DNA of 64,000 bases from Verrucomicrobiales bacterium (GCA_005809105.1 SYLI01000053.1:13542-77541); one strand, 5' to 3'. Numbered from the stretch's first letter, positions 7,023-58,420 are shown. Numbers and translations: made by a program. Notes: generated from the sequence alone by a model not told the origin.

Positions 7023-7034
7023 CGTTATTCTTTT

Positions 7035-10842: not shown

Positions 10843-10874
10843 CGGGAGTGCGAAAAGCATCGCGCCGCGCCAAC

Positions 10875-13040: not shown

Positions 13041-13043
13041 GAT

Positions 13044-34064: not shown

Positions 34065-34135
34065 AAAGCGAAACCGCGCCGAGCGTAGAGGCGCGCGGCG
34101 CGGCTGCAAATCCCAATCTCTTAACAAGCCTGCCG

Positions 34136-37053: not shown

Positions 37054-37092
37054 TTTCGCTTGCCGTTGCCCTGTGTTTTAAATGAAGGGCTT

Positions 37093-39440: not shown

Positions 39441-39466
39441 GCCGGTCGAGTCGGAGGGAAAACGCT

Positions 39467-41343: not shown

Positions 41344-41398
41344 TTTCCTTTTCCTTGTTGAGATAAGAGCCGTGTCAGGAAACTGCCATGGGCACGCC

Positions 41399-42226: not shown

Positions 42227-42251
42227 GGCTGGCTCCTCTTGCCTTTGCTGG

Positions 42252-44174
42252 TTACTGGCTTGCGATTTTCCTGCGCCATTCCGTGGCACGGTCATGGAAG
42301 GCCTGATACCAAAGCTCCAGGCTCAACAGGCCCCAAGTCTTGCGCGAGAATCGGGCTTCACTTCCAACGTTCTCAAGCACGGCCTTGGCGTTCACGAAGG
42401 GGCGGTGCTTGCTGGCCATGTGGTGAAACGTATCCCGCACAAATTCCTTCAGATCACCGTCGCACCATTCCTTGAGCGGAACGGGAAAGCCCATCTTGTC
42501 GCGCCGGTTGAGGATCTCGGCGGGGAGGTCGACTGCGAAGGCCGACTTGATGAGGTGTTTTAGGTTGCCGTCTTTGAACTTCACGTTGGCAGGGATGGTC
42601 GCGGCAAACTCCACCAAGGGATGATCCAGAAGCGGCACGCGGCTCTCCAGCCCATGAGCCATGCTCATGCGATCCTCCACTTGCAGCAAGGCTGGCAACA
42701 GGCACTTGAAATCGAAGTGGGTCATCGTGTCGAAATAAGCTTCCTTCTCAACATTGGCCGGGTTGTTGAAGATGGCGGCAAAGTCCTCAAAGACCTGCTT
42801 GCGGTCGAGCGCCGTCCAATCAATTTCGTCCTCCATGTCGGTGGAACGATCCACGAGCCTGAAGTAGCGCTGATCCATGGGGTCGAAAAGCCCGCTCCGC
42901 CAAAACTCCTTCATGAGCGGCTTGTATTCCCGGAGGAGGCCCAGGTTAGGCACGATGGACTCGATGGTGACGACGTAGTTTTGGTTGTTCTTGTAGTTGC
43001 CCTCGATGGCAGCCTTCATACATTGCTCGAAGTAGGCCACCACATAGCGGGCGTAGCCCCCAAAGATTTCGTCGCCCCCCTGGCCGCCCAAGACCACCTT
43101 GAGGTGGCTGGCCGCCAGTTTTGAGACCATGTATTGGGGGAACGAGCCGGGCCCGGCCACCGGGAAGTCCAGATGGTAAATGACATCGCGGATATGCGTC
43201 CGGAAATCCTGAGCGCGGATGTCGGCGATATGGAGCTTGCCGCCGGCGCAATCGGCCGCCGCTTGCGCGTATCGGCTTTCGTCGTAGCCTGGGAATTCGG
43301 TGAAGCGTCCGTGGAAACCCGGAGAGTCGGAGGTGCCATCGCGGTTGGCCAGAAGGTGAATGAGGCTGGAATCGATGCCCCCGGAGACGTAGCTTCCCAC
43401 ACTGACGTCGCTGCGCAGGTGCAAGCTGAGCGATTCTTCCACAAGCTCGCGCAGGCGGCGGCGAAAATAGGCCGGACTGTGGTCCCAGTCGATTTGGAAG
43501 CGGACGTCCCAGTACCTCCAAATCCTCACCTTGCCGTTCTCGATCGAGAGCGCCTGTCCGGGAAGCAGCTGGTGAACCCCGTCAAAGAGCGTCTTTTCGC
43601 CAAGGGTATACTGGAAGGTGAGGTATTCCGCCAACGCGCTCGGGTTGGTGTCGATGGAGGGCAAGAAAGGCAGCAGGGCTTTGGCCTCGGAGGCGAAATA
43701 AAACACCCCGTCCACCTGGGCATAATAGAAGGGCTTGATCCCGAATCGGTCTCGTGCGCAGAAGAGGCGCTGCCGAGACTCGTCCCAGATTGCGAACGCA
43801 AACATCCCGCGCAGGTGGCCGACGCAGGCGTCGCCATGCCGCACATATGCGGCGAGAATACATTCGGTGTCGGAATGGCTCCGAAACGCCCACGAGCCAG
43901 CCAGAGATTCACGCAGCTCGCGGTAATTGTAGATCTCCCCGTTGAAGGAGATGACCGCCCCATTCTCCCCATGCATGGGTTGGGCGGCCGCTTCCGAAAG
44001 GTCGATGATGGCAAGCCGCCGATGCACGAGCCCGACACTCCGGTCCTGCCGTTGCCATTGGCCAAACCCATCAGGCCCGCGATGGGAGATGAGTGTGCCC
44101 ATGGCCTCGAGTGCCTCCGGCAGCCGCTCTACAGGGCCGGAATTGGTATTAACGATACCTGCTATGCCACACAT
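42252..44174 (-). CDS. asnB: Asparagine synthase-family glutamine amidotransferase (probable uronamide formation)
   Basis: MCGIAG, HRRLAIIDLS, NGEIYN, RDRFGIKP, SGGIDSS, GQGGDEIFGGY, DRMSMAHGLESRVP. Confidence 0.93.
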   Translation of the reverse strand: MCGIAGIVNTNSGPVERLPEALEAMGTLISHRGPDGFGQWQRQDRSVGLVHRRLAIIDLSEAAAQPMHGENGAVISFNGEIYNYRELRESLAGSWAFRSHSDTECILAAYVRHGDACVGHLRGMFAFAIWDESRQRLFCARDRFGIKPFYYAQVDGVFYFASEAKALLPFLPSIDTNPSALAEYLTFQYTLGEKTLFDGVHQLLPGQALSIENGKVRIWRYWDVRFQIDWDHSPAYFRRRLRELVEESLSLHLRSDVSVGSYVSGGIDSSLIHLLANRDGTSDSPGFHGRFTEFPGYDESRYAQAAADCAGGKLHIADIRAQDFRTHIRDVIYHLDFPVAGPGSFPQYMVSKLAASHLKVVLGGQGGDEIFGGYARYVVAYFEQCMKAAIEGNYKNNQNYVVTIESIVPNLGLLREYKPLMKEFWRSGLFDPMDQRYFRLVDRSTDMEDEIDWTALDRKQVFEDFAAIFNNPANVEKEAYFDTMTHFDFKCLLPALLQVEDRMSMAHGLESRVPLLDHPLVEFAATIPANVKFKDGNLKHLIKSAFAVDLPAEILNRRDKMGFPVPLKEWCDGDLKEFVRDTFHHMASKHRPFVNAKAVLENVGSEARFSRKTWGLLSLELWYQAFHDRATEWRRKIASQ

Positions 44175-44330
44175 TCGTGCGCCTCCCCCTTCTAAAGATG
44201 ACCCTGCCGCAATAACTTTGCCCGCACATGGCGTCCTCTCCGGCGCGACGCCACTAAACGCACCCCGGCGAGGTCCACGGAAGTGCGGGCATCCACTACG
44301 TCGATTATCTCCGCCCTGCTCAGATTCCCC

Positions 44331-45203
44331 CTAGCGCTTCTGCACCACCACGTTAATTTCGACCGAGTGCACTACCCTCTCGAGCAACTTGCGGTGCAGT
44401 GGGCGGGACATTTTCCGGAAGAGCCCGAGCAATTTCTTGTGCAAGAAATCCCAGCCACGGACGGGAATCGGATACTTGAGTAGGCTATAGGAATAGAGGT
44501 AGAGCCCCGAACTGAATTCGAGCACTTTCTCGCGAAAGATGCGCGTGAACAGGAGCTCGAGCGAGTTGCAGTCAAACGCCCTGAGGTGCGCGTACTCGTA
44601 CGGGTAGTCGCGCTGAAGATACTTGCCAAGATTCTCCCGGTTGGGGACGCGCACGATCAAGTAGCCTCCCGGTTTCACCACGGACAAGCAGTTCCGTACA
44701 CACAGGTTCAAGTCGAGGACGTGTTCCAAGACGTCGGTGCAGGTAACGATGTCGAAGTAGCCCTTTTGGTAGGGGATGTCTTCGATTCTCGACATCACCA
44801 CGTTGATCCCCTGCTCCCGGGCGCGCTTGAGGTAAGGAAGGGCGATGTCCATTCCGTGAAGCTCGGCTTTAGTACCGGCGAGGCCGGCTTCGATCTTCTT
44901 GAGCAGCCTGCCAAGCCCCACCCCGATGTCCAACAATCTCAGGGTGCCTTGGGGCCCGGCATGCCTCGCATACTTCAAGGCTAGCCCAAGGGTTCCTTCC
45001 TCCATTTCAAGCCAGTCTTCCTCATCGATCCAAGGGTTGTCCCTTGTTGCAGTCATGCCCTGAATGTGATCAGTCGCGATCTTGAAATAGTTGTCCACGT
45101 AACTGTCGACCTCCGAGAACATAGGAATGCCATCGATCTCCTTCAGTGGCTCGCGTGCGAATGGACTTGATGCCGCCGTTCCGATGCCATTCATGATGTT
45201 CAT
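44331..45203 (-). CDS. Class I SAM-dependent methyltransferase
   Basis: LLDIGVGLG, TDVLEHV, KPGGYLIVRVPN. Confidence 0.87.
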   Translation of the reverse strand: MNIMNGIGTAASSPFAREPLKEIDGIPMFSEVDSYVDNYFKIATDHIQGMTATRDNPWIDEEDWLEMEEGTLGLALKYARHAGPQGTLRLLDIGVGLGRLLKKIEAGLAGTKAELHGMDIALPYLKRAREQGINVVMSRIEDIPYQKGYFDIVTCTDVLEHVLDLNLCVRNCLSVVKPGGYLIVRVPNRENLGKYLQRDYPYEYAHLRAFDCNSLELLFTRIFREKVLEFSSGLYLYSYSLLKYPIPVRGWDFLHKKLLGLFRKMSRPLHRKLLERVVHSVEINVVVQKR

Positions 45204-45269
45204 GTTAAAATCCGGTAGAGGCCACCTTGGTCGCCTTGGCACGTCTTCGGGAACGAATTCCTGTCGTGC

Positions 45270-46730
45270 TCATGCAGCCTTCGCCTTCACCTTGAGCAAG
45301 GAAGGGAAGGAGCCGACAAGCCGGACTTGCCAGTACGCAAAGGCTGTCAGGCCGGCACAGAGCAAGATGGAGAATGTGATGGACCAGATCAGCCGATCAG
45401 GCACCAGCAGCAGCGAAGCTGCAGCAGTGCCCAAGTAGGTCAGGGCGGGGATTGCGAGCCTGCGCCAAGGATAGTCGATTGCCACGTAGTCCCGCTTACG
45501 ATGTTGATTCCAGAGCCATTGTGAAAGGGGCAGGAAGGTACTGGATACGGTTAGGGCTAGCCCCGCCCCGAAGAGTCCCCAGTGCGTGACCATGATAAAT
45601 CCCAGGGGCAGCGAGACCATTGCCGAGATTCCCTGCCACAGGCTGACGAACCGGACCTCCTTCTGAAAATACATCCCTGGAGCCAGGAGGCTGAAGAGGC
45701 CGACCAAGAACTGTGACATAGCCGAGAATCCCACGACCAAGTAGGCTTGATGGAATGGGGGCTTCGTCAGCAGGAGTATCATCGGGTGGGCGAGGATGAA
45801 GAAAAGCACGGTGATACCCCCGACGATGATGACGTAGTAGTAGGTGATAACTCCAAAGGTTCGCCGCGCGTCCTCCGGCTTGTCGATGTACGACATGAAA
45901 AACGGGTACCACGCCTGTGTGACGCCGCCGACCACGATGGTCATCACCATGCCTATGTTGAACCCAATGGAGTAGATTCCCACCTGATCCAGCCCTTCGA
46001 GCCATTGCAGGATGTACCGGTTCCCCTGAAGTAGGATGAAAATGAATGCAAAGCCCGGGACGAGCGGGATGCCAAGCCTAAGCAATTCGGCGCCGATTGG
46101 CTTGGCGTAGGCGATGGCAGTCCCTCGCGCGCCCGCGGCCAAGAACATCAGGAAATTCAGTGCCTGCCCGACCGCCTGCGCCGCAATCATGCCTTTCACG
46201 CCCCATCCCATGTGGGCCACTGCGACGACGCTTAGCGCGGTGGACAAAAGCGCGCCCAAGAGGGTGATGCGCACAAACTCCCTAGTCTTGCGGTCAAATT
46301 GCATCCGCATGGTGAACGGAGTCGCTAGGATTCCGAAGACGGTGCCCGTGAGCGTGAGGGAAACCAGCAGGCTGTGTTCATCCGTTCTTGTCACCAGCCT
46401 GCTGAGCGGCGCGGGCACCGCCCAAGCAAGCACCAGAAGCACGCAACTGCTGGCCAGCAAAAGCAAGAAGGCAGTCCAGACCGTCGCCGACTTCCTATTG
46501 GGATCATTCCCCTGAAAATAAGCGGGCCCCATGGCTGCGCCCATTCCCAGCCCGAATACCGGCTGCGCGACCATCGCCAGCAGAGCCAGCATCGCCATAA
46601 TCCCATAGTCTGCGGGCGCGAGGTAAGCGGTGAAGAGCGGAAGCAGCAAGAGGCTGATGAATCGCGAAACCATGGAGCCGATCCCATAGATCAGCGTATC
46701 CTTTCCCAGACCTAAAATCGCCTCCTTCAT
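45270..46730 (-). CDS. wzx: Wzx-type oligosaccharide flippase (MOP family)
   Basis: Many TMs; IYGIGS..SRFISLLLLPLFTAYLAPADYG; VGIYS. Confidence 0.85.
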   Translation of the reverse strand: MKEAILGLGKDTLIYGIGSMVSRFISLLLLPLFTAYLAPADYGIMAMLALLAMVAQPVFGLGMGAAMGPAYFQGNDPNRKSATVWTAFLLLLASSCVLLVLAWAVPAPLSRLVTRTDEHSLLVSLTLTGTVFGILATPFTMRMQFDRKTREFVRITLLGALLSTALSVVAVAHMGWGVKGMIAAQAVGQALNFLMFLAAGARGTAIAYAKPIGAELLRLGIPLVPGFAFIFILLQGNRYILQWLEGLDQVGIYSIGFNIGMVMTIVVGGVTQAWYPFFMSYIDKPEDARRTFGVITYYYVIIVGGITVLFFILAHPMILLLTKPPFHQAYLVVGFSAMSQFLVGLFSLLAPGMYFQKEVRFVSLWQGISAMVSLPLGFIMVTHWGLFGAGLALTVSSTFLPLSQWLWNQHRKRDYVAIDYPWRRLAIPALTYLGTAAASLLLVPDRLIWSITFSILLCAGLTAFAYWQVRLVGSFPSLLKVKAKAA

Positions 46731-47716
46731 GCCGCGGTCGCTGTCTGTTTCGGTTCGGCGACTCGTCTCAGCCGGGCGCGTACCAGCCTACCCAACCCCT
46801 CGTGTAGGCTGATTTCGGCGGCAAATCCCAGCTCTTGCGCGGCACGCCTAGGATCGCCGATGCGGTTGCGCACCAGGGTGGCCTGGCTGCGTGGCGCGTA
46901 GCGGATCGGCTTGTCGCTCGCCGTGAGTTCTTGCAGCAACTCCGCCAGCTCCTTGAGCGAGGTGCGCTTGCCAGTGCCCACGTTGTAGAAACGATCGGTG
47001 GTGGTCGCCTTCATGGCGCAGACGTTGGCCCGGGCGCAGTCCTCCACCGCCACAAAGTCGAACGCCTCCGAGCCGTCACCCAAAATGGTCGGCGCTTCGC
47101 CCCTGTCGATGGCGTCGCGCATCTTCAGGATCACGGCGATGTCGGCGCCCTGATAGTCCTGTCGCGGCCCGTACACGTTCATGTACCGCAGGCCCACATA
47201 GTCCAGACCGTAACGGTGGTGGAACGCGCGCAGCATGGCCTCGCCGGCGATCTTGGTGGCGCCGTAGAAATTCTTGTTGTTAAACGGATGGCCCTCGTCC
47301 ATGGGCTCCTTCACCGCGTCGCCGTAAACAGAAGCCGACGAGGAGTACACCAGCCGTTTCACACCCTGCTTCACGCACGCCTCCATCACATTAAACGTGC
47401 CGCGAATGTTCACATCGAACGCGCTGCGCGGAAATTCGTGACATTGCAACAGCCACAAGGCCGCGAAGTGGAACACGCCGTCCACACCGTCCATCGCCGA
47501 CTCCAGAATGTCGGTTTGCAGGATGTCGCCGCCGGCGTCCCAGATTTTCACGCGCGGGTCGGTCAAGGCTCCGCGCAGATTTTCGGCGCGTCCTCGCACA
47601 AAATTGTCGTAGACCCGGATTTCGCGGGTGTTTTCCCGGATGAGCTGATCCACCGTGTGCGAGCCAATGAGGCCCGCACCCCCGACGACGAGCAGTGTGG
47701 AGCCTTCCAGTTTCAT
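46727..47716 (-). CDS. NAD-dependent epimerase/dehydratase
   Basis: GGAGLIGSH, SSSASVYG, YGATK, LRYMNVYGPRQ. Confidence 0.9.
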   Translation of the reverse strand: MKLEGSTLLVVGGAGLIGSHTVDQLIRENTREIRVYDNFVRGRAENLRGALTDPRVKIWDAGGDILQTDILESAMDGVDGVFHFAALWLLQCHEFPRSAFDVNIRGTFNVMEACVKQGVKRLVYSSSASVYGDAVKEPMDEGHPFNNKNFYGATKIAGEAMLRAFHHRYGLDYVGLRYMNVYGPRQDYQGADIAVILKMRDAIDRGEAPTILGDGSEAFDFVAVEDCARANVCAMKATTTDRFYNVGTGKRTSLKELAELLQELTASDKPIRYAPRSQATLVRNRIGDPRRAAQELGFAAEISLHEGLGRLVRARLRRVAEPKQTATAA

Positions 47717-48828
47717 GCCCGATGCGGTTCGTCCGCGCGGCTCAGCGCCGCCACGACAGCCCTCTGGTCTTCTTCGCTCACATACGCGCTCATGGGGAGG
47801 CTTAAACACTGTGAGGCCACGCGCTCGGTGACAGGAAAGTCGCCGCGCTGATGTCCCAGCGCGCCGAACACCGGCTGCAAGTGCAGGGGCACGGCGTAAT
47901 AAGCCACCGAGGGAATGCCCGCCGCCTGAAGGCGGGCCTGCAACGCGTCGCGTTCCGGGGAGAGCACCGTGTATTGCGCATAGACGGAAGTGCAGCCGGA
48001 TGCCACGTGAGGCAGCGTGAGGCCCGGGACGTGGCTGGACTTGAGCCCTTGGTCGTAGCGCGCACCGATCTCCTGGCGCAGCCGAACCTCGTCGGGGAAT
48101 TGTTCAAACGCCGCCAGCAACATCGCAGCCTGGAGCGTGTCCAGCCGGCCATTGATGCCCAGCAGCGGATGATGGTGCTTGCGGGCCTGACCGTGGACGC
48201 GAATTTGTCTGAACTTCTCCGACAGCGCGTCGTCGTCGGTAAAGAGCGCGCCGCCGTCCCCAAATCCGCCCAAGGGCTTGGAGGGAAAAAAGGACGTGCT
48301 GCCAATGAGCGAGAGCCCGCAGGAACGGCGGCCGTGGTAGCAGGCCCCAAAACTCTGGGCGGCGTCCTCGATGACGGGCAGTCCGTGGCGCGCCGCGATG
48401 GCGTTGATGGCGTCCATGTCCGGCGGCTGACCGTAGATGCCCACGGGCAGGATCGCCTTGGTGCGCGGCGTGATGGCGGCTTCCAGAAGGTCCGGATTCA
48501 AGTTCCACGTCTGCGGATGGATGTCCACAAACACGGGCTTGGCGCCGAGCAAGGCCACGACCTCCGCCGTGGAAATCCACGTGTAAGGCACGGTGACCAC
48601 CTCGTCGCCCCGGCCGATGCCCAGCGCCATGAGCGCGACGAGCAGCGTGTCCGTGCCGCTGGACATCCCCACGCAATGCTTTACGCCCACGTACGCGGCC
48701 AGCCGCTGCTCCAGCTCCGCCACCTCGGGCCCAAGGATGTACTGGCCGTGATCCAGCACCGCGCCGATGCGAGCCTCAAGCGAGCCGCGCAGGCGCGCCA
48801 CGCGCGTGGCAAGGTCAATAAATTGCAT
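47713..48828 (-). CDS. WbpE/WlbC-like sugar aminotransferase
   Basis: MQFIDL, HGQYILGPEV, EDAAQSFGA, TSFFPSKPLG, GINGRLDTLQAA. Confidence 0.9.
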   Translation of the reverse strand: MQFIDLATRVARLRGSLEARIGAVLDHGQYILGPEVAELEQRLAAYVGVKHCVGMSSGTDTLLVALMALGIGRGDEVVTVPYTWISTAEVVALLGAKPVFVDIHPQTWNLNPDLLEAAITPRTKAILPVGIYGQPPDMDAINAIAARHGLPVIEDAAQSFGACYHGRRSCGLSLIGSTSFFPSKPLGGFGDGGALFTDDDALSEKFRQIRVHGQARKHHHPLLGINGRLDTLQAAMLLAAFEQFPDEVRLRQEIGARYDQGLKSSHVPGLTLPHVASGCTSVYAQYTVLSPERDALQARLQAAGIPSVAYYAVPLHLQPVFGALGHQRGDFPVTERVASQCLSLPMSAYVSEEDQRAVVAALSRADEPHRA

Positions 48829-48829
48829 G

Positions 48830-49495
48830 CTAGGAAGGCTGGGACTGTTTGAATTGGCGATAGGCGACCGCCCCCACCGCCAGCGTTGCGGGCAATGGCG
48901 CATCTTCGGCCACATCCACGCCGCGCACCACGCCCTCCGCAAGCCGGTAGCGCAGTTTGGACTCGGGGCAGAGGGCCTCTCCTTGGGCCGTGAAATGGAG
49001 CGCATGCCCGTGCCGGCTCATCCAGCCGCGCTGCCGCGCCGGAGTGCCCATCATGAGCGCGTAGTCGGGCACATCGCGCGTCACCACCGCACCCGCCGCG
49101 ATGAACGCATAGCGGCCGATGGTGATGCCGCAGACAATCGTGGCGTTGGCGCCGATGGTCGCACCGCGACGCACGAGGGTCTTCTCGTACAGCGCGCGGC
49201 GCGCCACCTGCGAGCGCGGATTGCTGACGTTGGTCAGCACGCAGGAGGGCCCCAGAAACACATCCTCCTCCAGCGTCACCCCATCGTAGATGGCGACATT
49301 GTTCTGCACCTTCACGCGGTCGCCCAGCACCGCCGTGGGGGCGACATAGACATTCTGCGCCAGACTGCAGTGCGCGCCGATGCGCGCCCCCGCGCAGACA
49401 TGCGCGAAGTGCCAGAGGCGCGTGCCCTCCCCGATGAAACAGGGCTCATCGATGACGGCCGTCGGATGAGCGGTGAATGCAGCCGGAGCGCTCAT
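48830..49495 (-). CDS. WbpD/WlbB-like hexapeptide N-acetyltransferase
   Basis: WHFAHV, VKVQNNV, TNVSNPRS, GATIGANAT, RGWMSRHG. Confidence 0.9.
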   Translation of the reverse strand: MSAPAAFTAHPTAVIDEPCFIGEGTRLWHFAHVCAGARIGAHCSLAQNVYVAPTAVLGDRVKVQNNVAIYDGVTLEEDVFLGPSCVLTNVSNPRSQVARRALYEKTLVRRGATIGANATIVCGITIGRYAFIAAGAVVTRDVPDYALMMGTPARQRGWMSRHGHALHFTAQGEALCPESKLRYRLAEGVVRGVDVAEDAPLPATLAVGAVAYRQFKQSQPS

Positions 49496-50496
49496 TCCAC
49501 CTTCACGGGCTGGCCATTGAGTTGCAATGAAGCCTGACACGCCTCCAGCACCTGCAGCACGCGCACACCCGACGCGCCATCGGTGAGCGGCGGCTGGCGG
49601 TCCTCAAGACGCGCCAGAAAATGTTCGCACTCGGCGCGCAGCGGCTCCACGCCTGCGGGCAGCGGCACAGGCGTGTGCCCGTTCTTATGTAGCACCGGCT
49701 GCCTGCCTTGGAAATCCACGCGCTGATCAAATAGTACGAGCTTGTCGGTGGCAGCCACATCGTCAAACACCGCCATGCGCTTCTCTCCCATCACCACCAG
49801 CCGCTGCTCCTTGAAGGGGTTGAGCCAGCTCACAAAAATGTGCGCGCGCATTCCTGAGCGGAACAGCAGCGTGGACACCGTGACATCGGCGAGGTTTGAG
49901 GTGATGTAGCTTCCGCCCGCGCAGGTCACCTCTTGGGGCAGCTCGCCGGCAAGTCGCAGGATCACCGCCACGTCATGTGGCGCGAAACTCCAGAGCGCAT
50001 TTTCTTCCGTGCGGATTTTCCCGAAGTTGAGCCGGTGCGAATAGATGTAATTGACGCGGCCCATCTGGCCCTCCTGCAGCAGTTCACGCAGGCGCAACAC
50101 CGCCGGATGATATTCGAGCAGGTGCCCCACCATCAGCACCCGCTGGCCTTGGGCCGCCTGCTGCACCAGCAGCCGCCCCTCCGCAGCGCACAGCGTCAGC
50201 GGCTTCTCCACCAGCACATCCTTGCCGGCGGCCAGAGCCTGCTGGACGAGGCCAAAGTGGGTTTCCGCGGGCGTGGCAATCACCACGGCGTCGATGTCCT
50301 CACGCTGGAACGCCGACCCGAAGTCCGTGCTCACTTCCACCCCCGGCGCGGCCGCCTGCGCGGCAGCACCTGCCTGCGGCGCCGGATCGCAAATGAGCCG
50401 CAGCGCGCCCAACTGGTGGAACACCCTCGCGAGGTTGCGCCCCCAGTAGCCGCAGCCCATGAGGGCCACGCGAGGTGTCGACGGGTTGCCGCTCAC
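49492..50496 (-). CDS. Gfo/Idh/MocA oxidoreductase (WbpB/WlbA position)
   Basis: GCGYWG, IATP, VEKPL, SFAPHD. GTG start overlaps the upstream stop. Confidence 0.88.
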   Translation of the reverse strand: MSGNPSTPRVALMGCGYWGRNLARVFHQLGALRLICDPAPQAGAAAQAAAPGVEVSTDFGSAFQREDIDAVVIATPAETHFGLVQQALAAGKDVLVEKPLTLCAAEGRLLVQQAAQGQRVLMVGHLLEYHPAVLRLRELLQEGQMGRVNYIYSHRLNFGKIRTEENALWSFAPHDVAVILRLAGELPQEVTCAGGSYITSNLADVTVSTLLFRSGMRAHIFVSWLNPFKEQRLVVMGEKRMAVFDDVAATDKLVLFDQRVDFQGRQPVLHKNGHTPVPLPAGVEPLRAECEHFLARLEDRQPPLTDGASGVRVLQVLEACQASLQLNGQPVKVE

Positions 50497-51800
50497 GCCT
50501 TCCACACTTTCGCCCTGCACGAACCCACGGCCGCCATCGCATTGCGCGTGTCCACGATGGCGGGCACGCATTGGCCGAGCAGCGCGCAGTCCACGCCTTG
50601 GTGGGCCGTGACGATCACGGCCAGATGGTGGCGGCGCAGGTTCGCCTCGGTCCACGCCACCGACGCCTTGCCCGCCCAGTGAGCGTGTTCGCGCGTGACG
50701 GGGACGAGCGGAATGTGCGGGTCGTGGTATTCCACCTCGGCACCCCGTTCGCGCAGCGCGTCCATGATGACGAAGCTGGGCGACTCGCGGCAGTCGTCCA
50801 CATTGGCTTTATAGGCCAGGCCAACCACCAGCACGCGGCTGCCGCGCAGCGCGCGCCCCGCCGCATTGAGCGCCTCGGCGGCGCGGTCCACCACGCGCAG
50901 GGGCATGGCGGTGTTGATCTCGCCGGCGAGCTCGATGAACCGGGTGTTTAAGCCGTGCGCCCGCGCCTTCCACGCCAGGTAGAAGGGGTCGATGGGGATG
51001 CAATGGCCGCCCAGCCCGGGCCCCGGATAGAAGGGCATGTAACCAAAGGGCTTGGTCTTGGCCGCCTCGACGACCTCCCAGATGTCAATGCCCATGCGCT
51101 CGTAGATCACCTTGAGCTCGTTGACGAGCGCGATGTTGACCCCGCGAAAGATGTTCTCCAGCAGCTTGGCCGCCTCGGCCACGCGGCAGGAGGACACCGG
51201 CACCACGCGGCCCACGGCGCGTGAGTAGAGCGCCACGGCTTGGTCGCGACACGAGGGCGTGAGACCTCCGACGATCTTGGGGATGTCGCCGATGCGACTC
51301 TGCGGGTTGCCGGGATCTTCGCGCTCAGGCGAGAACGCCAGATGGAAGTCCACGCCTGCCTTGAGGCCCGAACCGGCCTCCAGCACCGGCAGCAGTTCCT
51401 CCTCCGTCGTGCCCGGATAGGTGGTGGACTCAAGCACCACCAACATGCCGCGCGCAAGGTGTGGCGCAATGGCGCGGCCGGTATTAAGCACGTACGACAG
51501 GTCGGGCTCGCGGTGCGCCGTGAGCGGCGTGGGCACGCAGATGAGCACGGCCTGCGTCTGGGCCACCTTGGAAAAGTCCACGCTGGCCTCCAGAAGCCCG
51601 GCGTGCCTTTGCGCGGCGATGGCCTCGGCGGGGATGTGCCGAAGGTAACTCTCCCCGCGGTTGACGCACCCCACCTTGGCCGCGTCCACGTCCAGCCCCA
51701 CCACAGCCACTCCGGCCTTGGCAAACTGAATGGCCAAGGGCAGGCCCACGTAGCCTAAGCCAACGATGGCGATTTTCGCAGAGGGCGAGGGTGGCGTCAT
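50493..51800 (-). CDS. UDP-GlcNAc 6-dehydrogenase (WbpA-like)
   Basis: GLGYVGLP, CVPTP, ESTTYPGTT, KLLENIFR, GPGLGGHCIPIDPFYL. Confidence 0.93.
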   Translation of the reverse strand: MTPPSPSAKIAIVGLGYVGLPLAIQFAKAGVAVVGLDVDAAKVGCVNRGESYLRHIPAEAIAAQRHAGLLEASVDFSKVAQTQAVLICVPTPLTAHREPDLSYVLNTGRAIAPHLARGMLVVLESTTYPGTTEEELLPVLEAGSGLKAGVDFHLAFSPEREDPGNPQSRIGDIPKIVGGLTPSCRDQAVALYSRAVGRVVPVSSCRVAEAAKLLENIFRGVNIALVNELKVIYERMGIDIWEVVEAAKTKPFGYMPFYPGPGLGGHCIPIDPFYLAWKARAHGLNTRFIELAGEINTAMPLRVVDRAAEALNAAGRALRGSRVLVVGLAYKANVDDCRESPSFVIMDALRERGAEVEYHDPHIPLVPVTREHAHWAGKASVAWTEANLRRHHLAVIVTAHQGVDCALLGQCVPAIVDTRNAMAAVGSCRAKVWKA

Positions 51801-51806
51801 GGCGTG

Positions 51807-52319
51807 TTAGGAGAAAATCCGTTCCGCCAAAGGCAGCAGCATCTTGATGCGCGATTGGATGGCGCGCAGGCGTGTGAGCCTCTCCACGATGAGCGCGTGT
51901 TCCTCCGGCGAGTAGCTCTCTTTCTCGGCCTCAATCTTGGCGAGCATTTCGTTCATGTGCGCGTCGGCATTTTGCAGCCGCGACTTAAAAAGGTTTTCAT
52001 AGGCGCGCCGCGCCAGTTCGCCCAGTTCCACCACGGCTTCGTAGCCATCCTTCCTTGCCGCGCGTACAAACACCCTTCGGGCGGCGCCCAGCGAAACCAG
52101 TTGGCGCGCACCGGTGCTCACGCTGGCCTTGCTCAAGCCCAGGCATTGGGCGATCTCATCGAGCGTCATGGGGCGCGGCGCCAGATAGAGAAGGCCGTAG
52201 ATTTCTCCCACCGACCGGGCGATTCCCAGCGACTGGGCGAACCGGCCGCAAGCCTCCACCATGTCCAACCGCGCGGCGGGCAAGCCTGGCAGGGCTTTGG
52301 ATAAGGCGGATTCTTCCAT
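51807..52319 (-). CDS. GbsR/MarR-family transcriptional regulator
   Basis: LGIARSVGEIYGLLYL...MTLDEIAQCLGLSKASVSTGARQL. Confidence 0.85.
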   Translation of the reverse strand: MEESALSKALPGLPAARLDMVEACGRFAQSLGIARSVGEIYGLLYLAPRPMTLDEIAQCLGLSKASVSTGARQLVSLGAARRVFVRAARKDGYEAVVELGELARRAYENLFKSRLQNADAHMNEMLAKIEAEKESYSPEEHALIVERLTRLRAIQSRIKMLLPLAERIFS

Positions 52320-52489
52320 CGCACTACGCACGGATACGACGATCACCGGGAACTGGGAACGGCAGCCACGCCACAAGACAAAACCCACGAGAAGAGTCGG
52401 GAGGCCGAATGGCCTTGAGACACTCCGTGCCCGTCACTTCGCACCCATGGCGCACTTCACAGAACCAAAATCCAATCAAATGATCGGAA

Positions 52490-52560: not shown

Positions 52561-53064
52561 CTAAATCAGAATCAGGTCGGCGGCGTCCATCTTGATGGCG
52601 GCGGCTTTGGAGATGAAATCGAGCCGCAGCAAGACCGTGGTGGGGCCTTGCCGGGTCTCAACCCAGCCCTCGATTCCCTTGAGTGGGCCTCGCTTGATTC
52701 GCACCATCGCACCCTCTGAGATGATGGGAGAGAGTTGAATCTCGTAGCCCATTTCCATGGCGGCGACAATGGCGGCAAGCTGGCGAAGGAACAGAGGCTC
52801 ATCATCCACCTCGAGCAAATGGACGAGGCAATGGCTCTCCCACAAGAGCCTGCGCGCTGCCGGTGTCGCGTGGACGAAGAGATAGCCTGGGAAGAGCGGC
52901 TTGTGGAAGGTGAGCGTCTTGCCGCGGTAACGCTTCACCGACCGGTAGCACACCAACTCATGCACCAGGGCGTGTTGGGTGCAGTGTCGGGAGAGCTTCT
53001 TCTCGCACCGCGGGCGCGTGTGGGCCACCCACCAACGCAAGTTGCAGCCGTCCACGCCTGGCAT
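52561..53064 (-). CDS. NusG-paralogue antiterminator (RfaH/UpxY-like)
   Basis: WWVAHTRPRCEKK, KPLFPGYLFV, KOW motif VRIKRGPLKGIEG. Confidence 0.88.
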   Translation of the reverse strand: MPGVDGCNLRWWVAHTRPRCEKKLSRHCTQHALVHELVCYRSVKRYRGKTLTFHKPLFPGYLFVHATPAARRLLWESHCLVHLLEVDDEPLFLRQLAAIVAAMEMGYEIQLSPIISEGAMVRIKRGPLKGIEGWVETRQGPTTVLLRLDFISKAAAIKMDAADLILI

Positions 53065-53545: not shown

Positions 53546-56500
53546 ATGCCTGCCGCCCACGCCAGCCGCGAAGACCTCGGAAAGGATGCCCCCCGGGCGA
53601 ATTTCCCCGAGCCGTCGCTCTGGGGTGTATGGGCACTGGTGCTCATCGCGTGGTGCTTTGGCGTCTTCACGAGGCTCTACTGGATTGAGGAATCCAAGCT
53701 GCCCGAAAAACAGGCCGACTACCATTGGCAGGGCGAGTTGCTGCCCAACACGCACGACAGCTACTTCTTCGGGGCCATCATCCAGAAGGCGCACCTGGGC
53801 GTGCATCAGCAGAACAAAGAGATTCCCGACGCCTACAAGTACGGCCCCATCACGCTCTTTTCAGCCAAGGTCTTGGATGTGTACAACGCGCCGGTCTATC
53901 GAAGGCTGAGACTCTCGCAGGCGCAATTGGACACGGCCGCCCAGGCGCTGGAAGCCCAGAGCCAAGCTTCGCACGACACGAGCAATGCGACGATGGCTGC
54001 GATGCAAGCTCTGCGCGACGCCCGGAAGGCGTTGGCGGGCCCCTTCCTTGTTCCCAAAATGCTGCGTGACACGGCGCGAGCCTCCGCCGAGACCGCGCGC
54101 CAGGTGGCCCAGCGGATTTCCGATGGCAACGGCACCGCCTCGTCACCTCACTTGGCGGCGGCCACCGCAGCCTTGGTGCGCGCGGAAGATTCCGCCGTCG
54201 CCGCCAGCCGACGCTCGATGCTTTCGGTCGAACAGATCATGGTGTATTCGCCCGCCCTTGTGGGCAGCCTGCTGGTGGTGCCGCTGGTATTGATCGGCCG
54301 GCTCTACCAACTCACCCTCTGGGGTTTCCTTGCCGCGCTCATGGCCGTGAGCGCCAACAGCTATTACAACCGTACGATGGCGGGCTATTTCGACACCGAC
54401 ATGTTTTCGGTGCCGATACCCGCGGCCATCCTGTACTGGCTCTTGCGCGCCGTCCGCTTGGGCAGTCTGGGCTCGGCGATAACGGGTGCGCTTTTGATCA
54501 TGGCCTACCCGTTTTTTTACCGCTCCAGCATGCCCATCGCTGCCGCGATGGGGCTGGCCTTTATCGGCCACCAGGCCGTGTTCCGATTCCGCGACACCAC
54601 CGCATGGCAGACCATTGCACCCGTGGCGATGGCCGTGTTGTTTGTCGATGCGGCGTTTCCCTTCATGGACGCCACGGGCTCGCGCACGGGCCCGGCGCTG
54701 ATTTGGCTGGCGAAGATATTGGCGCTCGTGGGCTCAGCACTGCTGATGCGCCGGCTGACCGCGCCGCCCATCCCCGAAGCCGGGGCAACGGCCGCCCCCT
54801 CATCCCTTCCAAGACTGCGTTGGGCCGCGGCGCTCGCGCTGGTGCTGGTGGTGCTCTTCTCCTCCCCGTTCAGTCTCGTCACCCAAAAGATTCTCCAGTA
54901 CCTGCCCTCCTCCGAGCGCACCTCCGTGGTTGAAACGGCGCAGAACCTCCAATTCAAGAATGTCATCAGCACCATTCAGGAGGCGCGCGAAATCCCCGGG
55001 CGCGAAGTGGGCCTGCGCATCGCCGGCACCGTGGTGGGCTGCATCATTGCACTCTTTGGATACGCGCTCTTGGCGGGGCGTCATCCGGAGTTTCTGCTGG
55101 CCGCCCCCTTGGTGGGCATTGGTGTGTTTACACTCTGGGGCGGACTGCGCTTTACCATTCACGCCGTCGCCATTGCCGGGCTGTCGTTCGCCTACCCGTT
55201 CTTCTGGCGCAGCGACTCGCCTCTGGCGCGTGCGGCGATGCGCACGGCCCTCTTTGCCGCACTGGGGGCCATCGCATGGAGCTGGCTGGTCAATTTCACG
55301 GGCGCACCCGTGCCATGGTTTTTCCTGCCACTGGCCGCACTCGCCGGGTGGGGGATTGCTCATGCCGCCGATGAAGAAGAGGTGAAATGGCACAGCGCTC
55401 TGGCCGGCGTGGCCGCCATCGGCATGGTGCTGCTCGGATGCCTCATCCGATCTGAATACGAAACCCGCTACTCGGGCATCTGGAGCGACCGCTATGGCGC
55501 CCTGGCCCGGCCCCTTTACAGTGTTGCCGTGTTGTCCGCGGCCCTGGCCGCCATCACCGCCACCCTCACGCGCGGCACAGCCGCCGCATCGACACTGGTG
55601 GCGTTGCGCGTTGCGCTGGGTGTGATGGCGCTGACGTGGTTCGTTGGGGCCGCAATCACCTTCCGGTCACTCGCAGGCGAACTCTTCACCGGCGTGGGTT
55701 GGGAAGATCTGCCCACGTGGCTCGTGGGATTGCAATGGGCCCAAGTCATCCTCGCGGGCGCCGTGGCAGGGTGGGCGGTTCATTTCACGAGTTTGGTACA
55801 TTCGAGGGCACAACGCTTGCAATGGGGTGCCATCGCAGGCGCCGTGGCTGCACTGGGTTGCGGTCTGGGGTTGTCGGGGTTCAACGTGTCAGTGTACTGG
55901 GCGAATTCGCAGTGGCTGCCCGTTTGCGCAGCCATACTCCTCTCGGCCGCGCTGTGCGCACGTCTTGGGGGTATGCATTTGCTGCCGTCAAGGATTGGCC
56001 AACTGCGTCCCGCTGCACCCGCGATGGCGGCCTGCGCCGCGGCCTTGGCAGCGGGTGTGGCGTGGGCGCTTCTGGCACAGGCGCTCAATGAACCGCTGCC
56101 GCATGACGCGCTGAGCTTCCGCCCCTTGCCCGAGCCGCTTAGTTTTGGCCCCTGGGCCATCGGGTTGGTTGCTGGCATTGCCGCCACCTATACCGCCAAA
56201 GAGGCGGCTGCGGGCCCGCGGGGATGGATTGCCGCGGTGTCGGCTCTCTTGGGGCTCATTGCCGGAGTGTTGGTGATGGGCCGGTATTTGGATGCCTCGG
56301 CGGGAGAGATCTTCTCCCTTGGCGACGCGGCCCCAGCGCCACGCCATGCACCGTGGCCGCTGGCCCTCATGGCCATCATGGCCGCGACCACCGCAGGCGT
56401 GCTGCCCGGCCTGCTGCGCGGAGCGGCCCATTCCATCGTCACGGCGTGCGCGGTGGCCTGCGCCAGCGTCCTGTGCTTCCTCACCCCCAACCTGCTTCAT

Positions 56501-58420
56501 GCACGCGATCAAAGCCGCGGCATTCCGCCGGTGCTGGAGCAACCCTCTGTGGAAATCCTGGATGTGCTTCGCGCGCATGCGAAGCCCGGGGACTTCGTGC
56601 TGACGTGGTGGGACTACGGCGGCGCCACCTGGTACCACGCAGGCTGCAACGTCCTCTGCCATCCAGGAAATCAAACCGAGGACATCTATGTTCTGGCCCG
56701 CGCGTTTAGCGCCACCAACAAGCTGGAGGTGGCGAACCTGGGCCGGCTGGCCGTGGAGGCCTACGCACAGAAAGGGCCCCTGGCCGTGCATCAACTCTTC
56801 AAAGGCGAGCTGGGGCCCGGCGAAGATGGGGACCACGACTTGCGTGATGACTGGAGCGGCCTTCCGGCGACGGCGCAGGTCGGCCCGCGTGGCATCATTC
56901 GCGCGCTCAACAGCACCAACTACCGGCCACCGCTGCCCACTCGCGACATCTATTTCTACCTGCCCAAAAAACTGCTGCCCATCCTTCAGGTGATGCGGCA
57001 GTTTAGCGAGCGAGACCTGTGGCCCTTGCAGCGCGAGTTCCAGACGGGCCTCAACTTCCAAACCGGCGTCGGCGCGCCCGGCGGCAAGCCCGACCCGGCT
57101 GTGGCCATCGACTGGTTTACCGTGGCGGCGGAGAAGGGACACGCGGAGGCGCAATTCCGCCTGGCGGGGCTTCTTCGTGATGAGTACCTCAAGACCCTGC
57201 CGCCCCCGGTGGCCGCCCGGGTGAATGAATCGCTCAAGAAGGGCGAGGCCGGGCGGGAGGAACTGGCCGCCCTGCACCGTGGCCAGCAGCAGCGAGGGCA
57301 GGCCGCGGGCATCGAGAGCGCGTTCCGCTGGGCCGCTCGCGCGGCCAGCGCAGGCCCCGCCGCTTTCTCACGGCCCGCAATCGGCAGCACCGGCGACGCC
57401 TTTGCCGCGCAGGATCCAGACCGGCTCCTTGCCTTGGCGGTGGCCTTGCGCGACCAGATTGGGCAGTTGCTGCCGGTGGATCTGGCCAGCGCCCTGCGAT
57501 CGCAGGCCGAACAATTTGTGCCGCGCGATGCCGAGCTTCCCATCCCCACCTTCTTCCCCACCACCATCCGCGTCACCCAGTCGATGCCTGCGCAGACCGA
57601 GGCCATCTTCCTCGCCGATCGCTACCTTCTGGATCGGGCGGATCTGCGGATGTACGAAAGCATGCGCGATCAGGGATTTGAGCCCGCACGCGTCGAGCAT
57701 GGCATTGGACTCATTCGCCGGCTCATGGCCCGGATGAGCCGTGCGGAGGGGGCTGCCAACACCGAAGCCATCGCGCAACAAGCCGGCGAGGCGCTGCGGA
57801 TGATTCATCCGCAGATCGCGCTTACACCGCAGCTGCTTGCCGCGCCGCTGCAGCGCCGCGATCCGGCGGCGTTTGGCGACTTTGCGTTGCAGGCGCTGCG
57901 CCACTGGTTCCCCGGCGCAGACAAACAGCTCGGAGCCCAGTTGCTCGATGGGCGCGTGGTGATTGGCGCGGTGGAGGAAATCACGCTGGAGCACATCACG
58001 CTGGTGGGAGAGAAGGTGGTGCCCGGGCCCTCGCCCAAACCGGGCGAGGTGGCGCGCCAGTCCGTGCCTGTCACCATTCCCTGGCGGATGATCCACACCT
58101 TGTATCGCCCCAGCACCTGGCTCAACCAACTCTTCATCACGTCGCTGGGGCCTGCGCCCGCGAAGCTTCCCTCGGGCACCACGGTGGAAGGGGAGCTGCT
58201 GCGCCGCCGCCAGATTGGCCTCACGCCCGGCAGCCAGGCCTCGGATTTGTTTCTGGTGATCGCCAATGACCTCAACGTGGCCTATCTGATGCACCGCGAC
58301 GTCTTTCATTCCAATATCGTGCAGATGCTCCTCATGGGTGTGTACGACGACCAGCGGTTTGAACTCATCTTCCACAACCGCGAGGGCAAGCTCATCCGGT
58401 TCCGGCGTTCGACGCCCTGA
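53546..58420 (+). CDS. Giant STT3/PglB-family oligosaccharyltransferase
   Basis: THDSY, SYYNRTMAGYFDTD, TIQE, GLRFTI, WWDYG, RDIYFYLP, plus large insertions and a Sel1-like repeat. Confidence 0.9.
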   Translation: MPAAHASREDLGKDAPRANFPEPSLWGVWALVLIAWCFGVFTRLYWIEESKLPEKQADYHWQGELLPNTHDSYFFGAIIQKAHLGVHQQNKEIPDAYKYGPITLFSAKVLDVYNAPVYRRLRLSQAQLDTAAQALEAQSQASHDTSNATMAAMQALRDARKALAGPFLVPKMLRDTARASAETARQVAQRISDGNGTASSPHLAAATAALVRAEDSAVAASRRSMLSVEQIMVYSPALVGSLLVVPLVLIGRLYQLTLWGFLAALMAVSANSYYNRTMAGYFDTDMFSVPIPAAILYWLLRAVRLGSLGSAITGALLIMAYPFFYRSSMPIAAAMGLAFIGHQAVFRFRDTTAWQTIAPVAMAVLFVDAAFPFMDATGSRTGPALIWLAKILALVGSALLMRRLTAPPIPEAGATAAPSSLPRLRWAAALALVLVVLFSSPFSLVTQKILQYLPSSERTSVVETAQNLQFKNVISTIQEAREIPGREVGLRIAGTVVGCIIALFGYALLAGRHPEFLLAAPLVGIGVFTLWGGLRFTIHAVAIAGLSFAYPFFWRSDSPLARAAMRTALFAALGAIAWSWLVNFTGAPVPWFFLPLAALAGWGIAHAADEEEVKWHSALAGVAAIGMVLLGCLIRSEYETRYSGIWSDRYGALARPLYSVAVLSAALAAITATLTRGTAAASTLVALRVALGVMALTWFVGAAITFRSLAGELFTGVGWEDLPTWLVGLQWAQVILAGAVAGWAVHFTSLVHSRAQRLQWGAIAGAVAALGCGLGLSGFNVSVYWANSQWLPVCAAILLSAALCARLGGMHLLPSRIGQLRPAAPAMAACAAALAAGVAWALLAQALNEPLPHDALSFRPLPEPLSFGPWAIGLVAGIAATYTAKEAAAGPRGWIAAVSALLGLIAGVLVMGRYLDASAGEIFSLGDAAPAPRHAPWPLALMAIMAATTAGVLPGLLRGAAHSIVTACAVACASVLCFLTPNLLHARDQSRGIPPVLEQPSVEILDVLRAHAKPGDFVLTWWDYGGATWYHAGCNVLCHPGNQTEDIYVLARAFSATNKLEVANLGRLAVEAYAQKGPLAVHQLFKGELGPGEDGDHDLRDDWSGLPATAQVGPRGIIRALNSTNYRPPLPTRDIYFYLPKKLLPILQVMRQFSERDLWPLQREFQTGLNFQTGVGAPGGKPDPAVAIDWFTVAAEKGHAEAQFRLAGLLRDEYLKTLPPPVAARVNESLKKGEAGREELAALHRGQQQRGQAAGIESAFRWAARAASAGPAAFSRPAIGSTGDAFAAQDPDRLLALAVALRDQIGQLLPVDLASALRSQAEQFVPRDAELPIPTFFPTTIRVTQSMPAQTEAIFLADRYLLDRADLRMYESMRDQGFEPARVEHGIGLIRRLMARMSRAEGAANTEAIAQQAGEALRMIHPQIALTPQLLAAPLQRRDPAAFGDFALQALRHWFPGADKQLGAQLLDGRVVIGAVEEITLEHITLVGEKVVPGPSPKPGEVARQSVPVTIPWRMIHTLYRPSTWLNQLFITSLGPAPAKLPSGTTVEGELLRRRQIGLTPGSQASDLFLVIANDLNVAYLMHRDVFHSNIVQMLLMGVYDDQRFELIFHNREGKLIRFRRSTP

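Follow-up and report, generated by a model that had tools for sequence, protein, structure and literature searches.

Why does a bacterium carry an oligosaccharyltransferase (OST) more than twice the usual length, and does so large a protein keep the active site of its smaller kin? The question is raised by a gene in a 64,000-nucleotide stretch of DNA from a Verrucomicrobiales bacterium (GCA_005809105.1 SYLI01000053.1:13542-77541), which was analysed as a whole and is called the window below, all positions being counted from its first letter. The gene occupies positions 53546..58420 of the plus strand, including the stop codon; it begins with ATG and translates without internal stops into 1624 amino acids (aa), and both the list of open reading frames (ORFs) and the translation agree with a first-pass annotation of the sequence, which had described an OST over twice as long as usual. 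By homology (Pfam and a phmmer search of the Protein Data Bank, PDB) and by fold, the product is a single-subunit OST of the PglB type, a member of the STT3 family with glycosyltransferase fold C (GT-C). It is probably an active N-OST, which would take the lipid-linked glycan made by a neighbouring gene cluster, transfer it by the catalytic mechanism of PglB and differ from PglB in the pocket for the reducing-end sugar, its three large inserts serving as accessory modules.

The phmmer search matched the protein to PglB of Campylobacter lari (E 9e-41) in five collinear pieces, residues 29-91, 226-364, 426-552, 996-1156 and 1567-1621 aligning to PglB residues 17-76, 97-235, 267-392, 438-582 and 658-712, respectively. 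Two Pfam families, STT3 (PF02516) and STT3-PglB_core (PF21436), were recognised at 53.4 and 67 bits (cut-offs 24.5 and 23). The pieces mark out, all on the plus strand, the first transmembrane (TM) helix with the start of external loop 1 (EL1) and its THDSY motif (aa 20-91, 53603..53818; PglB 17-76), the TM core with RTMAGYFDTD, Y325, Y452, TIQE, R491 and GLRF (aa 226-554, 54221..55207; PglB 97-235 and 267-392), the last TM helix with the first part of the periplasmic domain (aa 960-1156, 56423..57013; aligned from residue 996 on to PglB 438-582), and the C-terminal strands that complete a PglB-type periplasmic domain (aa 1567-1624, 58244..58417; PglB 658-712). The third of these segments carries WWDYG (1021-1025), G1026, HPGN (1039-1042) and LLPI.

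AlphaFold models were built for aa 1-1200 and aa 990-1624, and their superposition on solved structures was followed through Z scores, root-mean-square deviations (rmsd) and aligned ranges. The first model has a mean predicted local distance difference test score (pLDDT) of 70.9 and a predicted template modelling score (pTM) of 0.72; pLDDT exceeds 85 in the core, is 85-96 in aa 20-91 and 72-94 in aa 960-1156, and is high in the insert in EL1 and low in the insert among the TM helices. It superposes on C. lari PglB (6gxc_A) with a Z of 40.1 and an rmsd of 3.0 Å over 563 of 706 residues at 28% identity, and in the same search yeast and human STT3 reached Z 22-26, AglB 18-24 and ArnT 17; the first three ranks of a Foldseek search were the three PglB entries. 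The segment aa 960-1156 matches 3aag with Z 15 and rmsd 1.8 Å. The second model (pLDDT 84.2) superposes on residues 435-711 of 5ogl with Z 25.6 and rmsd 2.7 Å over 264 residues. The models show what is taken to define a GT-C OST, namely a multi-pass TM core joined to an extracytoplasmic domain that can be laid over solved OSTs.

Does this fold still house a working active site? The first-pass annotation had listed the PglB motifs and called the catalytic ones intact, and a script run on the window found all of them where it had placed them: THDSY at aa 69 (nucleotide 53750), RTMAGYFDTD at aa 276 (54371), TIQE at aa 476 (54971), GLRF at aa 533 (55142), and WWDYG at aa 1021 (56606); HPGN lies at aa 1039 (56660). 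Residues were mapped by counting along ungapped blocks of the phmmer alignment to C. lari PglB, and conservation was read from an alignment of 35 sequences comprising the giant proteins described below, their small relatives and Campylobacter-type proteins. Invariant in these 35 sequences are D71 of the first acidic motif at the metal site (PglB D56), R276 (R147), D283 and D285 of the second acidic, DXD-type motif (D154 and D156), Y325 (Y196), E479 of the TIXE/SVSE motif in external loop 5, which here reads T476-I-Q-E479 (E319), R491 (R331), R535 of GLRF (R375), and W1021, W1022 and D1023 (W463-W464-D465) together with G1025. Y452 (Y293) and I1146 (I572) are invariant in a nine-sequence alignment of the family, and the catalytic and contact residues of the TM core (aa 226-554) are all invariant or at least 90% conserved. 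The roles of D56, R375, Y196 and Y468 in PglB, with R375 and Y196 as contacts of the pyrophosphate of the lipid-linked oligosaccharide (LLO), follow passages of PMC6215017, and those of the OST motif set follow passages of PMC8342417. The contacts to the metal and to the lipid pyrophosphate are retained in alignment and conservation alike, and of those to the Ser/Thr at position +2 of the acceptor WWD and I1146 are kept, with Leu (L1143) for the Met of the MxxI motif, which bears out the claim of intact catalytic motifs, and together with the superposition this suggests that the motifs would form an active site of the PglB type.

The additional length is distributed over three inserts, delimited by the gaps between the collinear PglB pieces and by BLAST comparison with 23 ORFs from related loci, in which no ORF shorter than 1200 aa gave a high-scoring segment pair (HSP) over any insert. 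The first-pass annotation had mentioned only an Ala-rich helical insert of about 100 aa in the first external loop. That insert is real and helical, its length is 134 aa, and as an account of the size it falls short, since it contributes only about 130 of some 900 extra residues, two inserts of about 400 aa supplying the rest.

Insert 1 (aa 92-225, 53819..54220) lies between the residues equivalent to PglB 76 and 97 and is modelled as an Ala-rich four-helix bundle with helices at 101-142, 147-163, 170-193 and 201-222 (pLDDT 94-98); it has 31 Ala and no Cys, and is 63% identical to its counterpart in the homologue P0003 and 36% to that in P0004. Its fold matches are generic helical bundles only, for example Csp proteins (Z 14, rmsd 2.5 Å). 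A role as a Csp-like copper store was considered and rejected, because the insert has no Cys and helical bundles reach Z 14 by chance.

Insert 2 (aa ~555-959, 55208..56422) is a hydrophobic TM array. A profile made from the last TM region in 17 small OSTs is interrupted by it, profile positions 1-34 matching aa 521-554 and positions 68-98 matching aa 960-990, which places the insert after the GLRF helix and before the last TM helix. Searched alone it had no Pfam match, no stand-alone homologue was found among the shorter proteins searched, and the best ESM Atlas score for aa 575-960 was 0.84, below the level of 0.9 taken as a lead. It contains a repeat module of about 58 aa, present here as copy 1 at aa 576-632 (55271..55441) and copy 2 at aa 837-908 (56054..56269), which a single unit of P0004 finds by phmmer with independent E-values (i-E) of 0.0096 and 0.0023 and an iterated profile with 5e-15 and 5.4e-15; from the same P0004 unit the paralogous unit of P0003 is found at i-E 2e-6. 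The iterated profile, which is circular by construction, gave 41 matches at i-E <= 0.01 in eight proteins and none in a fivefold locally shuffled control, so that the support for the repeat comes from this empty control and from single-sequence phmmer, where non-self units are matched at i-E 1e-5 to 1e-6. A BLAST self-comparison of the insert gave no off-diagonal matches, the repeats being visible only to phmmer and profiles. There are two copies here and in the 1549-aa P0003, and six in each of six relatives of 2188-2397 aa. An origin of insert 2 by tandem duplication of the last TM helices of the core was hinted at by BLAST (residues 523-634 against 953-1063 of L003, E 5e-6, and against 1352-1465 of P0006, E 3e-4); it is unsupported, as the profile of the 17 small OSTs matched only the true core positions.

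Insert 3 (aa 1157-1566) comprises 410 aa inside the periplasmic domain. Its first part, 3a (aa 1157-1329, 57014..57532), resembles Sel1 and tetratricopeptide repeats (TPRs): Pfam Sel1 is matched at E 8e-5, below the cut-off, Sel1-repeat proteins in the PDB at E 4e-4, and the fold matches are 4bwr (Z 11.5), AlgK (3e4b, Z 10.8) and 6ok3 (Z 10.4). With insert 3 as query, a library of 1.84 billion representatives gave 3654 matches, nearly all of them in its first ~120 aa. The second part, 3b (aa 1330-1566, 57533..58243), is an alpha/beta region modelled with strands and helices, mostly at pLDDT 80-95, and among the best 150 of the 3654 matches P0003, P0004 and P0009 alone extend over it; no fold match to it stood among the 50 listed, and the best ESM Atlas score for aa 1325-1566 was 0.76, under the same lead level of 0.9. 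Part of 3b must stand in for PglB residues 583-657, and the remainder is confined, among those best 150 matches, to the giant clade. Searched by themselves against Pfam, the inserts gave only the sub-threshold Sel1 match for insert 3, chance-level matches for the EL1 insert and none for the TM insert.

Do the inserts belong to a lineage or to a single odd assembly? The host genome is a 3.0-Mb metagenome-assembled genome (MAG) of 106 contigs, 95.9% complete, with a single copy of STT3. When 5.8 billion proteins were searched by a word index, nine matches came back at E <= 0.001, namely the protein's own cluster (P0001), P0003 (1549 aa, 63% identity over 98% of the query, a cluster found on six contigs), six clusters of 2188-2397 aa and one protein of 931 aa. 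A scan of species genomes found 118 relatives, among which the nearest named one is L001, a MAG labelled 'Pedosphaera sp.' (63% identity over residues 16-1621), and another MAG, L003, has a giant ORF of about 2412-2429 aa. Nine giants, including the protein studied here, were compared, and the three inserts are collinear in the other eight (1549-2412 aa), each being alignable in P0003, P0004, P0005 and P0009. The inserts have diverged more than the core, with 53-68% identity to P0003 (core 75-80%) and 30-36% to P0004 (core 49-56%); over P0004, P0005 and P0009 together the range is 25-40%, lower than that of the core.

A tree was built from 38 proteins and 738 core columns, with insert columns removed by a 60% fill rule and five rows left out (three duplicates and two ORFs truncated at the N-terminus); it came from a quick search, was midpoint-rooted and includes 12 rows of deviant composition. 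The nine giants form one side of a branch with an SH-aLRT support (Shimodaira-Hasegawa-like approximate likelihood ratio test) of 100, their sister group consists of Verrucomicrobiota proteins of 856-955 aa (support 99), and 28 rows of Verrucomicrobiota/Planctomycetota type split from 10 rows of Campylobacterota and Myxococcota (support 98). As judged from these sequences, the giants are one clade of single origin, nested among Verrucomicrobiota OSTs of 718-955 aa.

Location on a contig of a MAG in 106 pieces, together with a length over twice the usual, might raise the suspicion of an assembly or annotation artefact, that is, a chimera or an OST fused to neighbouring genes. Yet the same collinear architecture recurs in P0003 with its six contigs, in the six clusters of 2188-2397 aa, and in L001, L003, G001 and G003, so the alignment of homologues, to which the first-pass annotation had looked for conservation of size and inserts or for signs of a chimera, speaks against one. 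The C-terminal 58 aa finish the periplasmic domain of PglB, which makes the insert internal and argues against an end-to-end fusion; GC content is even along the gene, and the TM insert had no stand-alone homologue in the search of shorter proteins. We therefore give an artefact next to no credence, and return to the protein as an OST enlarged from within.

The glycan side of the active site departs from that of Campylobacter. The first-pass annotation had reported that the DGGK motif is replaced by HPGN and had deduced an altered glycan-side pocket; the replacement is confirmed, H1039-P-G-N1042 aligning to D481-G-G-K484 (HMMER with 5ogl and 3rce), and a second change that it had missed, G1026 at the position of PglB Y468 in the phmmer alignment, strengthens the altered pocket. 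As a peculiarity of the giant protein the pocket does not hold: in all 21 ORFs listed from Verrucomicrobiota, Planctomycetota and relative genomes, including those of 718-955 aa, WWD[YW]G is followed by G, T or S and the DGGK site reads x-P-x-x-x (for example SPYNQ, TPINQ, HPGNQ, HPGDQ or APSKQ), and none of the 21 has DGG[KRN]. In contrast, the named Campylobacterota rows listed have WWDYGY and DGGK, two Myxococcota rows have DGGN and DGTK, and in both groups the Y468 position is Y. Because all 21 listed relatives, small ones included, share them, HPGN and G1026 are, on this sequence comparison, inherited traits of the Verrucomicrobiota/Planctomycetota branch of OSTs. With the reducing-end-sugar pocket remodelled across all the OSTs of this branch examined, this enzyme probably follows other rules for its glycan than Campylobacter PglB does.

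How might such an enzyme work? From homology, fold, residue conservation, conservation of the inserts and gene context we infer its activity, its substrates and the roles of the inserts, the mechanism being modelled on that of C. lari PglB. The divergently transcribed cluster would build a polyprenyl-pyrophosphate-linked glycan, to be flipped by the cluster's Wzx-type flippase; R535 and Y325 would bind the pyrophosphate, D71, D283, D285 and E479 would hold a divalent cation and activate the acceptor Asn, and WWDYG with I1146 would bind the Ser/Thr at +2 of the N-x-S/T sequon, whereupon periplasmic or secreted proteins would receive the glycan en bloc. The three clade-specific additions (the EL1 bundle, the repeated TM modules, and the Sel1/TPR-like with the alpha/beta module) would have been made without disturbing the core, and as part of the same, probably correct, reading their predicted fold classes suggest binding of partner or acceptor proteins and scaffolding in the membrane.

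Several observations weigh against this reading. Y468 and DGGK, both replaced here, are called essential or strictly conserved in Campylobacter PglB in passages of PMC6215017 and PMC8342417, and the Met of the MxxI motif (PglB M569) is Leu in L1143-L-P-I1146. The NCBIfam equivalog model for Campylobacter PglB, NF050801 (ProtGlycPglB), is matched at only 213.3 bits against a cut-off of 1300, and by this score the protein is a homologue of PglB and not an equivalog. Insert 2, with its hydropathy segments, is predicted by AlphaFold as about 10-11 helices at a pLDDT of only 26-61, so that neither the number of helices nor the parity of the topology is fixed by the model. The roles given to the inserts follow from fold class, and the Z of 10-11 for Sel1-like and tetratricopeptide repeats and of 14 for the bundle lie within the chance range for helical proteins.

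The two pocket substitutions at residues so valued in Campylobacter, the large non-catalytic additions and the LLO-hydrolase activity known for OSTs (a passage of PMC8342417) might together indicate a protein that is catalytically impaired or repurposed, as a scaffold, as an LLO hydrolase freeing oligosaccharides or as a transferase acting on a non-protein acceptor. The substitutions, however, occur in 21 of the 21 listed ORFs, those of 718-955 aa among them, while D71, D283, D285, E479, R535, WWD and the Ile of the +2 pocket are invariant, which is what a working enzyme whose sugar pocket has changed would show, and not what decay would; moreover, the genome has kept one intact copy of the gene next to a complete glycan cluster. 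We regard loss or change of function as quite unlikely, and an active N-OST as the better account.

Which sequons would such an active enzyme use? The first-pass annotation had pointed out an Arg exactly 12 residues after the Glu of TIQE and had derived from it a preference for D/E-x-N-x-S/T. The spacing is correct (R491 = E479 + 12, nucleotide 55016), and the residue aligns without gaps to R331 of PglB; the preference does not follow from it as stated, because the Arg is also kept in relaxed OSTs and E487 lies nearby. According to passages of Ollis 2015 (PMC4894442) the R331-equivalent Arg is retained in the naturally relaxed CcPglB, CuPglB and DgPglB, and a passage of PMC12229607 ties relaxation to acidic or neutral residues around the Arg, comparing I323, V327 and L374 of ClPglB with L367, E371, D374 and T418 of DmPglB. 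The protein studied here has I483, E487 (equivalent to V327/E371 and four residues ahead of R491), L534, and L490 directly before R491; position 487 is Asp in P0003 and Thr or Ile in the larger giants. The -2 preference cannot be read from R491, with such an Arg kept in relaxed OSTs and E487 at the V327 position, and the neighbouring residues leave it ambiguous, E487 being acidic while the hydrophobic I483 and L534 are kept.

A strict minus-two rule, that is, a preference for D/E-x-N-x-S/T because R491 equals R331, would be favoured by the invariance of this Arg in the 35 sequences, by I483 and L534, which preserve the hydrophobic character at two (I323 and L374) of three neighbouring positions tied to the positive patch of ClPglB in PMC12229607, and by sequons of the proteins themselves. 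Among the conserved sequons of the six giants of 2188-2397 aa in alignment A1, three are acidic at -2 wherever they occur (EDNAT/DDNST in six of six, EMN[AV]T in five, [ED]GNAT in four), and the protein studied here has one DGN195GT in its EL1 insert (aa 195-199, 54128-54142, plus strand, in a loop of the bundle). A fourth A1 sequon, [ST]GN[NH][ST] in five of the six, has Ser or Thr at -2. These giants are close kin, so that their conserved sequons are weak evidence, and the retention of the Arg in relaxed enzymes (PMC4894442) and the acidic residue at the V327 position, E487 here and Asp in P0003, where relaxed DmPglB has E371 (PMC12229607), speak against strictness. Where the larger giants have E/D-D-N-[AS]-T as the EL1-loop sequon, the present protein has TSN147AT (aa 147-151, 53984-53998, plus strand, likewise in a loop of the bundle) and P0003 has ADNAT, and a neighbouring secreted-looking protein of 1286 aa has D or E at -2 in only four of its 16 sequons. 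We consider a strict rule possible and lean towards doubting it. A minus-two rule in the larger giants, relaxed in this genus, is compatible with the sequons, a comparison of two closely related groups which assumes self-glycosylation.

Could the enzyme glycosylate itself? The EL1-loop sequon stands in the same alignment column in seven of the eight giants of alignment A1, that of the protein studied here being two residues off, and a further sequon, N1042-Q-T (aa 1042-1044, 56669-56677, plus strand), occupies the DGGK position itself, where N-Q-[ST] is frequent, though not universal, among the listed Verrucomicrobiota, Planctomycetota and relative-genome ORFs. Self-glycosylation at these sites is possible from the sequence. 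It forms part of a more far-reaching combination, in which the giants would be self-contained 'holo-OSTs' that glycosylate themselves, are freed from the need for a C2-N-acetyl group and in this genus follow a relaxed minus-two rule. One chain would then have gained modules (TM helices, a helical-repeat domain and the EL1 bundle) by analogy with the accessory subunits of eukaryotic OST; the EL1 loop and N-Q-T at the DGGK site would be the sites of self-glycosylation, the latter echoing the glycosylated DNXT of eukaryotic STT3; losing Y468 and DGGK across the clade would lift the C2-N-acetyl requirement of Campylobacter PglB; and E/D487 beside R491 would relax the minus-two rule, which fits the enzyme's own EL1 sequon lacking an acidic -2 residue. 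That all of these should hold jointly seems unlikely to us.

To our knowledge, work on bacterial N-glycosylation has dealt almost entirely with Campylobacterota and Desulfovibrio, and a full-text search of open-access papers and preprints found no study of an OST from Verrucomicrobia or Planctomycetes beyond a phylogeny paper citing 'a few bacterial homologues'. With C. lari and C. jejuni PglB (5OGL, 6GXC, 3RCE, 3AAG) the protein shares the GT-C fold of TM core plus periplasmic domain, the equivalents of D56, R147, D154, D156, Y196, Y293, E319, R331, R375, WWDYG and I572, and an adjoining glycan cluster with PglC-, PglF- and PglE-like genes; it differs in its length (1624 against ~712 aa), the three inserts, the Verrucomicrobiota host, a core identity of 28%, and the changes of Y468 to Gly, DGGK to HPGN and M569 to Leu. 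Small OSTs of Verrucomicrobiota and Planctomycetota (718-955 aa; P0010-P0014, L004, L007, L086-L090) share its clade in the tree and the pocket signature, but have no BLAST HSP over the EL1 or the TM insert and only ~65-165 aa opposite the 410-aa periplasmic insert. The PglBs of Desulfovibrio are of ordinary size. Like the present protein, DgPglB and DmPglB are single-subunit enzymes from outside the Campylobacterota that keep the R331-type Arg (a passage of PMC4894442), and DmPglB has an acidic residue at the V327 position (E371, here E487; PMC12229607), whereas by their description in PMC12229607 the Desulfovibrio enzymes differ in keeping DGGR and in having WWDWG, and NL for MI.

Catalytic GT-C cores with extra TM or protein-binding modules occur in the multi-subunit OST of eukaryotes and in TPR-bearing GT-Cs such as TMTC. 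The likeness is one of working principle only, a core with additional TM helices and extracytoplasmic binding modules; in contrast to eukaryotic OST the extra modules are inserted into a single polypeptide chain, homology with the accessory subunits was not detected, and the alignment with eukaryotic STT3 runs through the shared core only (Z 22-26). In a passage of PMC8342417 the eukaryotic and TACK/Asgard enzymes are described with a glycosylated DNXT motif in place of DGGK, the site that N1042-Q-T occupies here.

What emerges is that an entire Verrucomicrobiota/Planctomycetota branch of PglB-type enzymes has a reducing-end-sugar pocket of another kind, lacking both Tyr468 and DGGK, and that within this branch one lineage enlarged its OST to 1549-2412 aa by folded modules, leaving the catalytic residues untouched and varying the number of repeat modules (two or six). 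OSTs that lack the residue reading the C2-N-acetyl group may be candidates in glycoengineering for glycans that PglB rejects, and the inserts offer OST biology a natural test of how accessory modules function in a single-subunit enzyme.

Among genomes of related bacteria the OST has a scattered distribution. Forty relatives were searched, 24 of the same family and 16 from other families of the order, several of the further matches being Sel1 proteins only. The TM core was found in 14 of the 24, one more having an N-terminal fragment alone, and in one of the 16 (G032, 815 aa). Within the family, three genera have ORFs of 755-998 aa, the sole genome of the same genus (G001) one of 1604 aa and G003 one of 2429 aa; in G009 the OST is cut by a contig end, yet it aligns through the EL1 insert. 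Among 400 further genomes across the phylum none matched core residues 226-560 at E <= 1e-10, from which the OST is patchy within the phylum, a matter that has no bearing on function. In genus g4, core matches were found in G007, G010, G013 and G023 and none in G004, G015, G017, G019 and G021, genomes that are 85-95% complete; this is not proof of absence. In G016 (C9:71235-73853) the OST region is divided among several separate short frames of 125-682 aa, which suggests a broken gene or assembly errors. OST homologues of Opitutia measure 1086-1117 aa, and a Myxococcota MAG (L072, ORF ~6599-12109) encodes a 1837-aa homologue whose STT3 core begins at about aa 1135, behind an N-terminal extension of ~1100 aa with a weak GT1 match; this is an independent and different way of enlarging a bacterial OST.

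The glycan-assembly cluster (~25 kb, 28250..52388, minus strand), annotated by Pfam, NCBIfam and a genome family search, contains sugar-modifying genes for a nucleoside-diphosphate (NDP)-sugar dehydrogenase, a GFO/IDH/MocA oxidoreductase, two DegT aminotransferases, several epimerases/dehydratases of the short-chain dehydrogenase/reductase (SDR) type and a WecB 2-epimerase. A PglF-like 4,6-dehydratase lies at 28250-30199 and a PglC-like phosphoglycosyltransferase at ~30361-30939 (Bac_transf match G000:C36:43902-44480 in the genome family search), both on the minus strand; the other genes encode a MarR-like protein, a Wzx-type flippase, GT2, two methyltransferases and an AsnB-like amidotransferase. 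At the head of the cluster and divergent from the OST stands a gene for a NusG-like antiterminator of the UpxY/LoaP/RfaH type (52561..53064, minus strand; Pfam NusG), which scores 55.6 bits for UpxY and 49.5 bits for LoaP in NCBIfam, each below its own cut-off. The giants of L001 and L003 have a NusG-like gene in the same divergent position together with sugar-modifying genes, and in L003 the place suited to a PglK-type flippase is taken by an ATP-binding cassette (ABC) transporter. A scan for promoters and terminators found nothing above shuffled controls.

Mid-cluster, a 458-aa ORF (37093-38469, minus strand) belongs to no Pfam or NCBIfam family, and local GC is lower across 36-40 kb (0.59-0.60). 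Convergent with the end of the cluster is the gene of the 1286-aa protein mentioned above (24377-28237, plus strand), which has a signal-peptide-like N-terminus, 6.5% Asn and no Pfam or NCBIfam family; by its sequence it is a candidate acceptor glycoprotein. Downstream of the OST a convergent gene (58730-59551, minus strand) encodes 273 aa carrying an FxLYD domain at the C-terminus, recognised by NCBIfam at 41.6 bits (cut-off 23), and L001 has a 290-aa protein without a family in the same position. Further away, two adjacent sets of tripartite-efflux type (3492-14873, minus strand, and 15060-15896, plus strand), comprising MacB/FtsX permease, ABC ATPase, HlyD-like adaptor and OEP outer-membrane factor, are followed by a gene for a Ser/Thr protein kinase.

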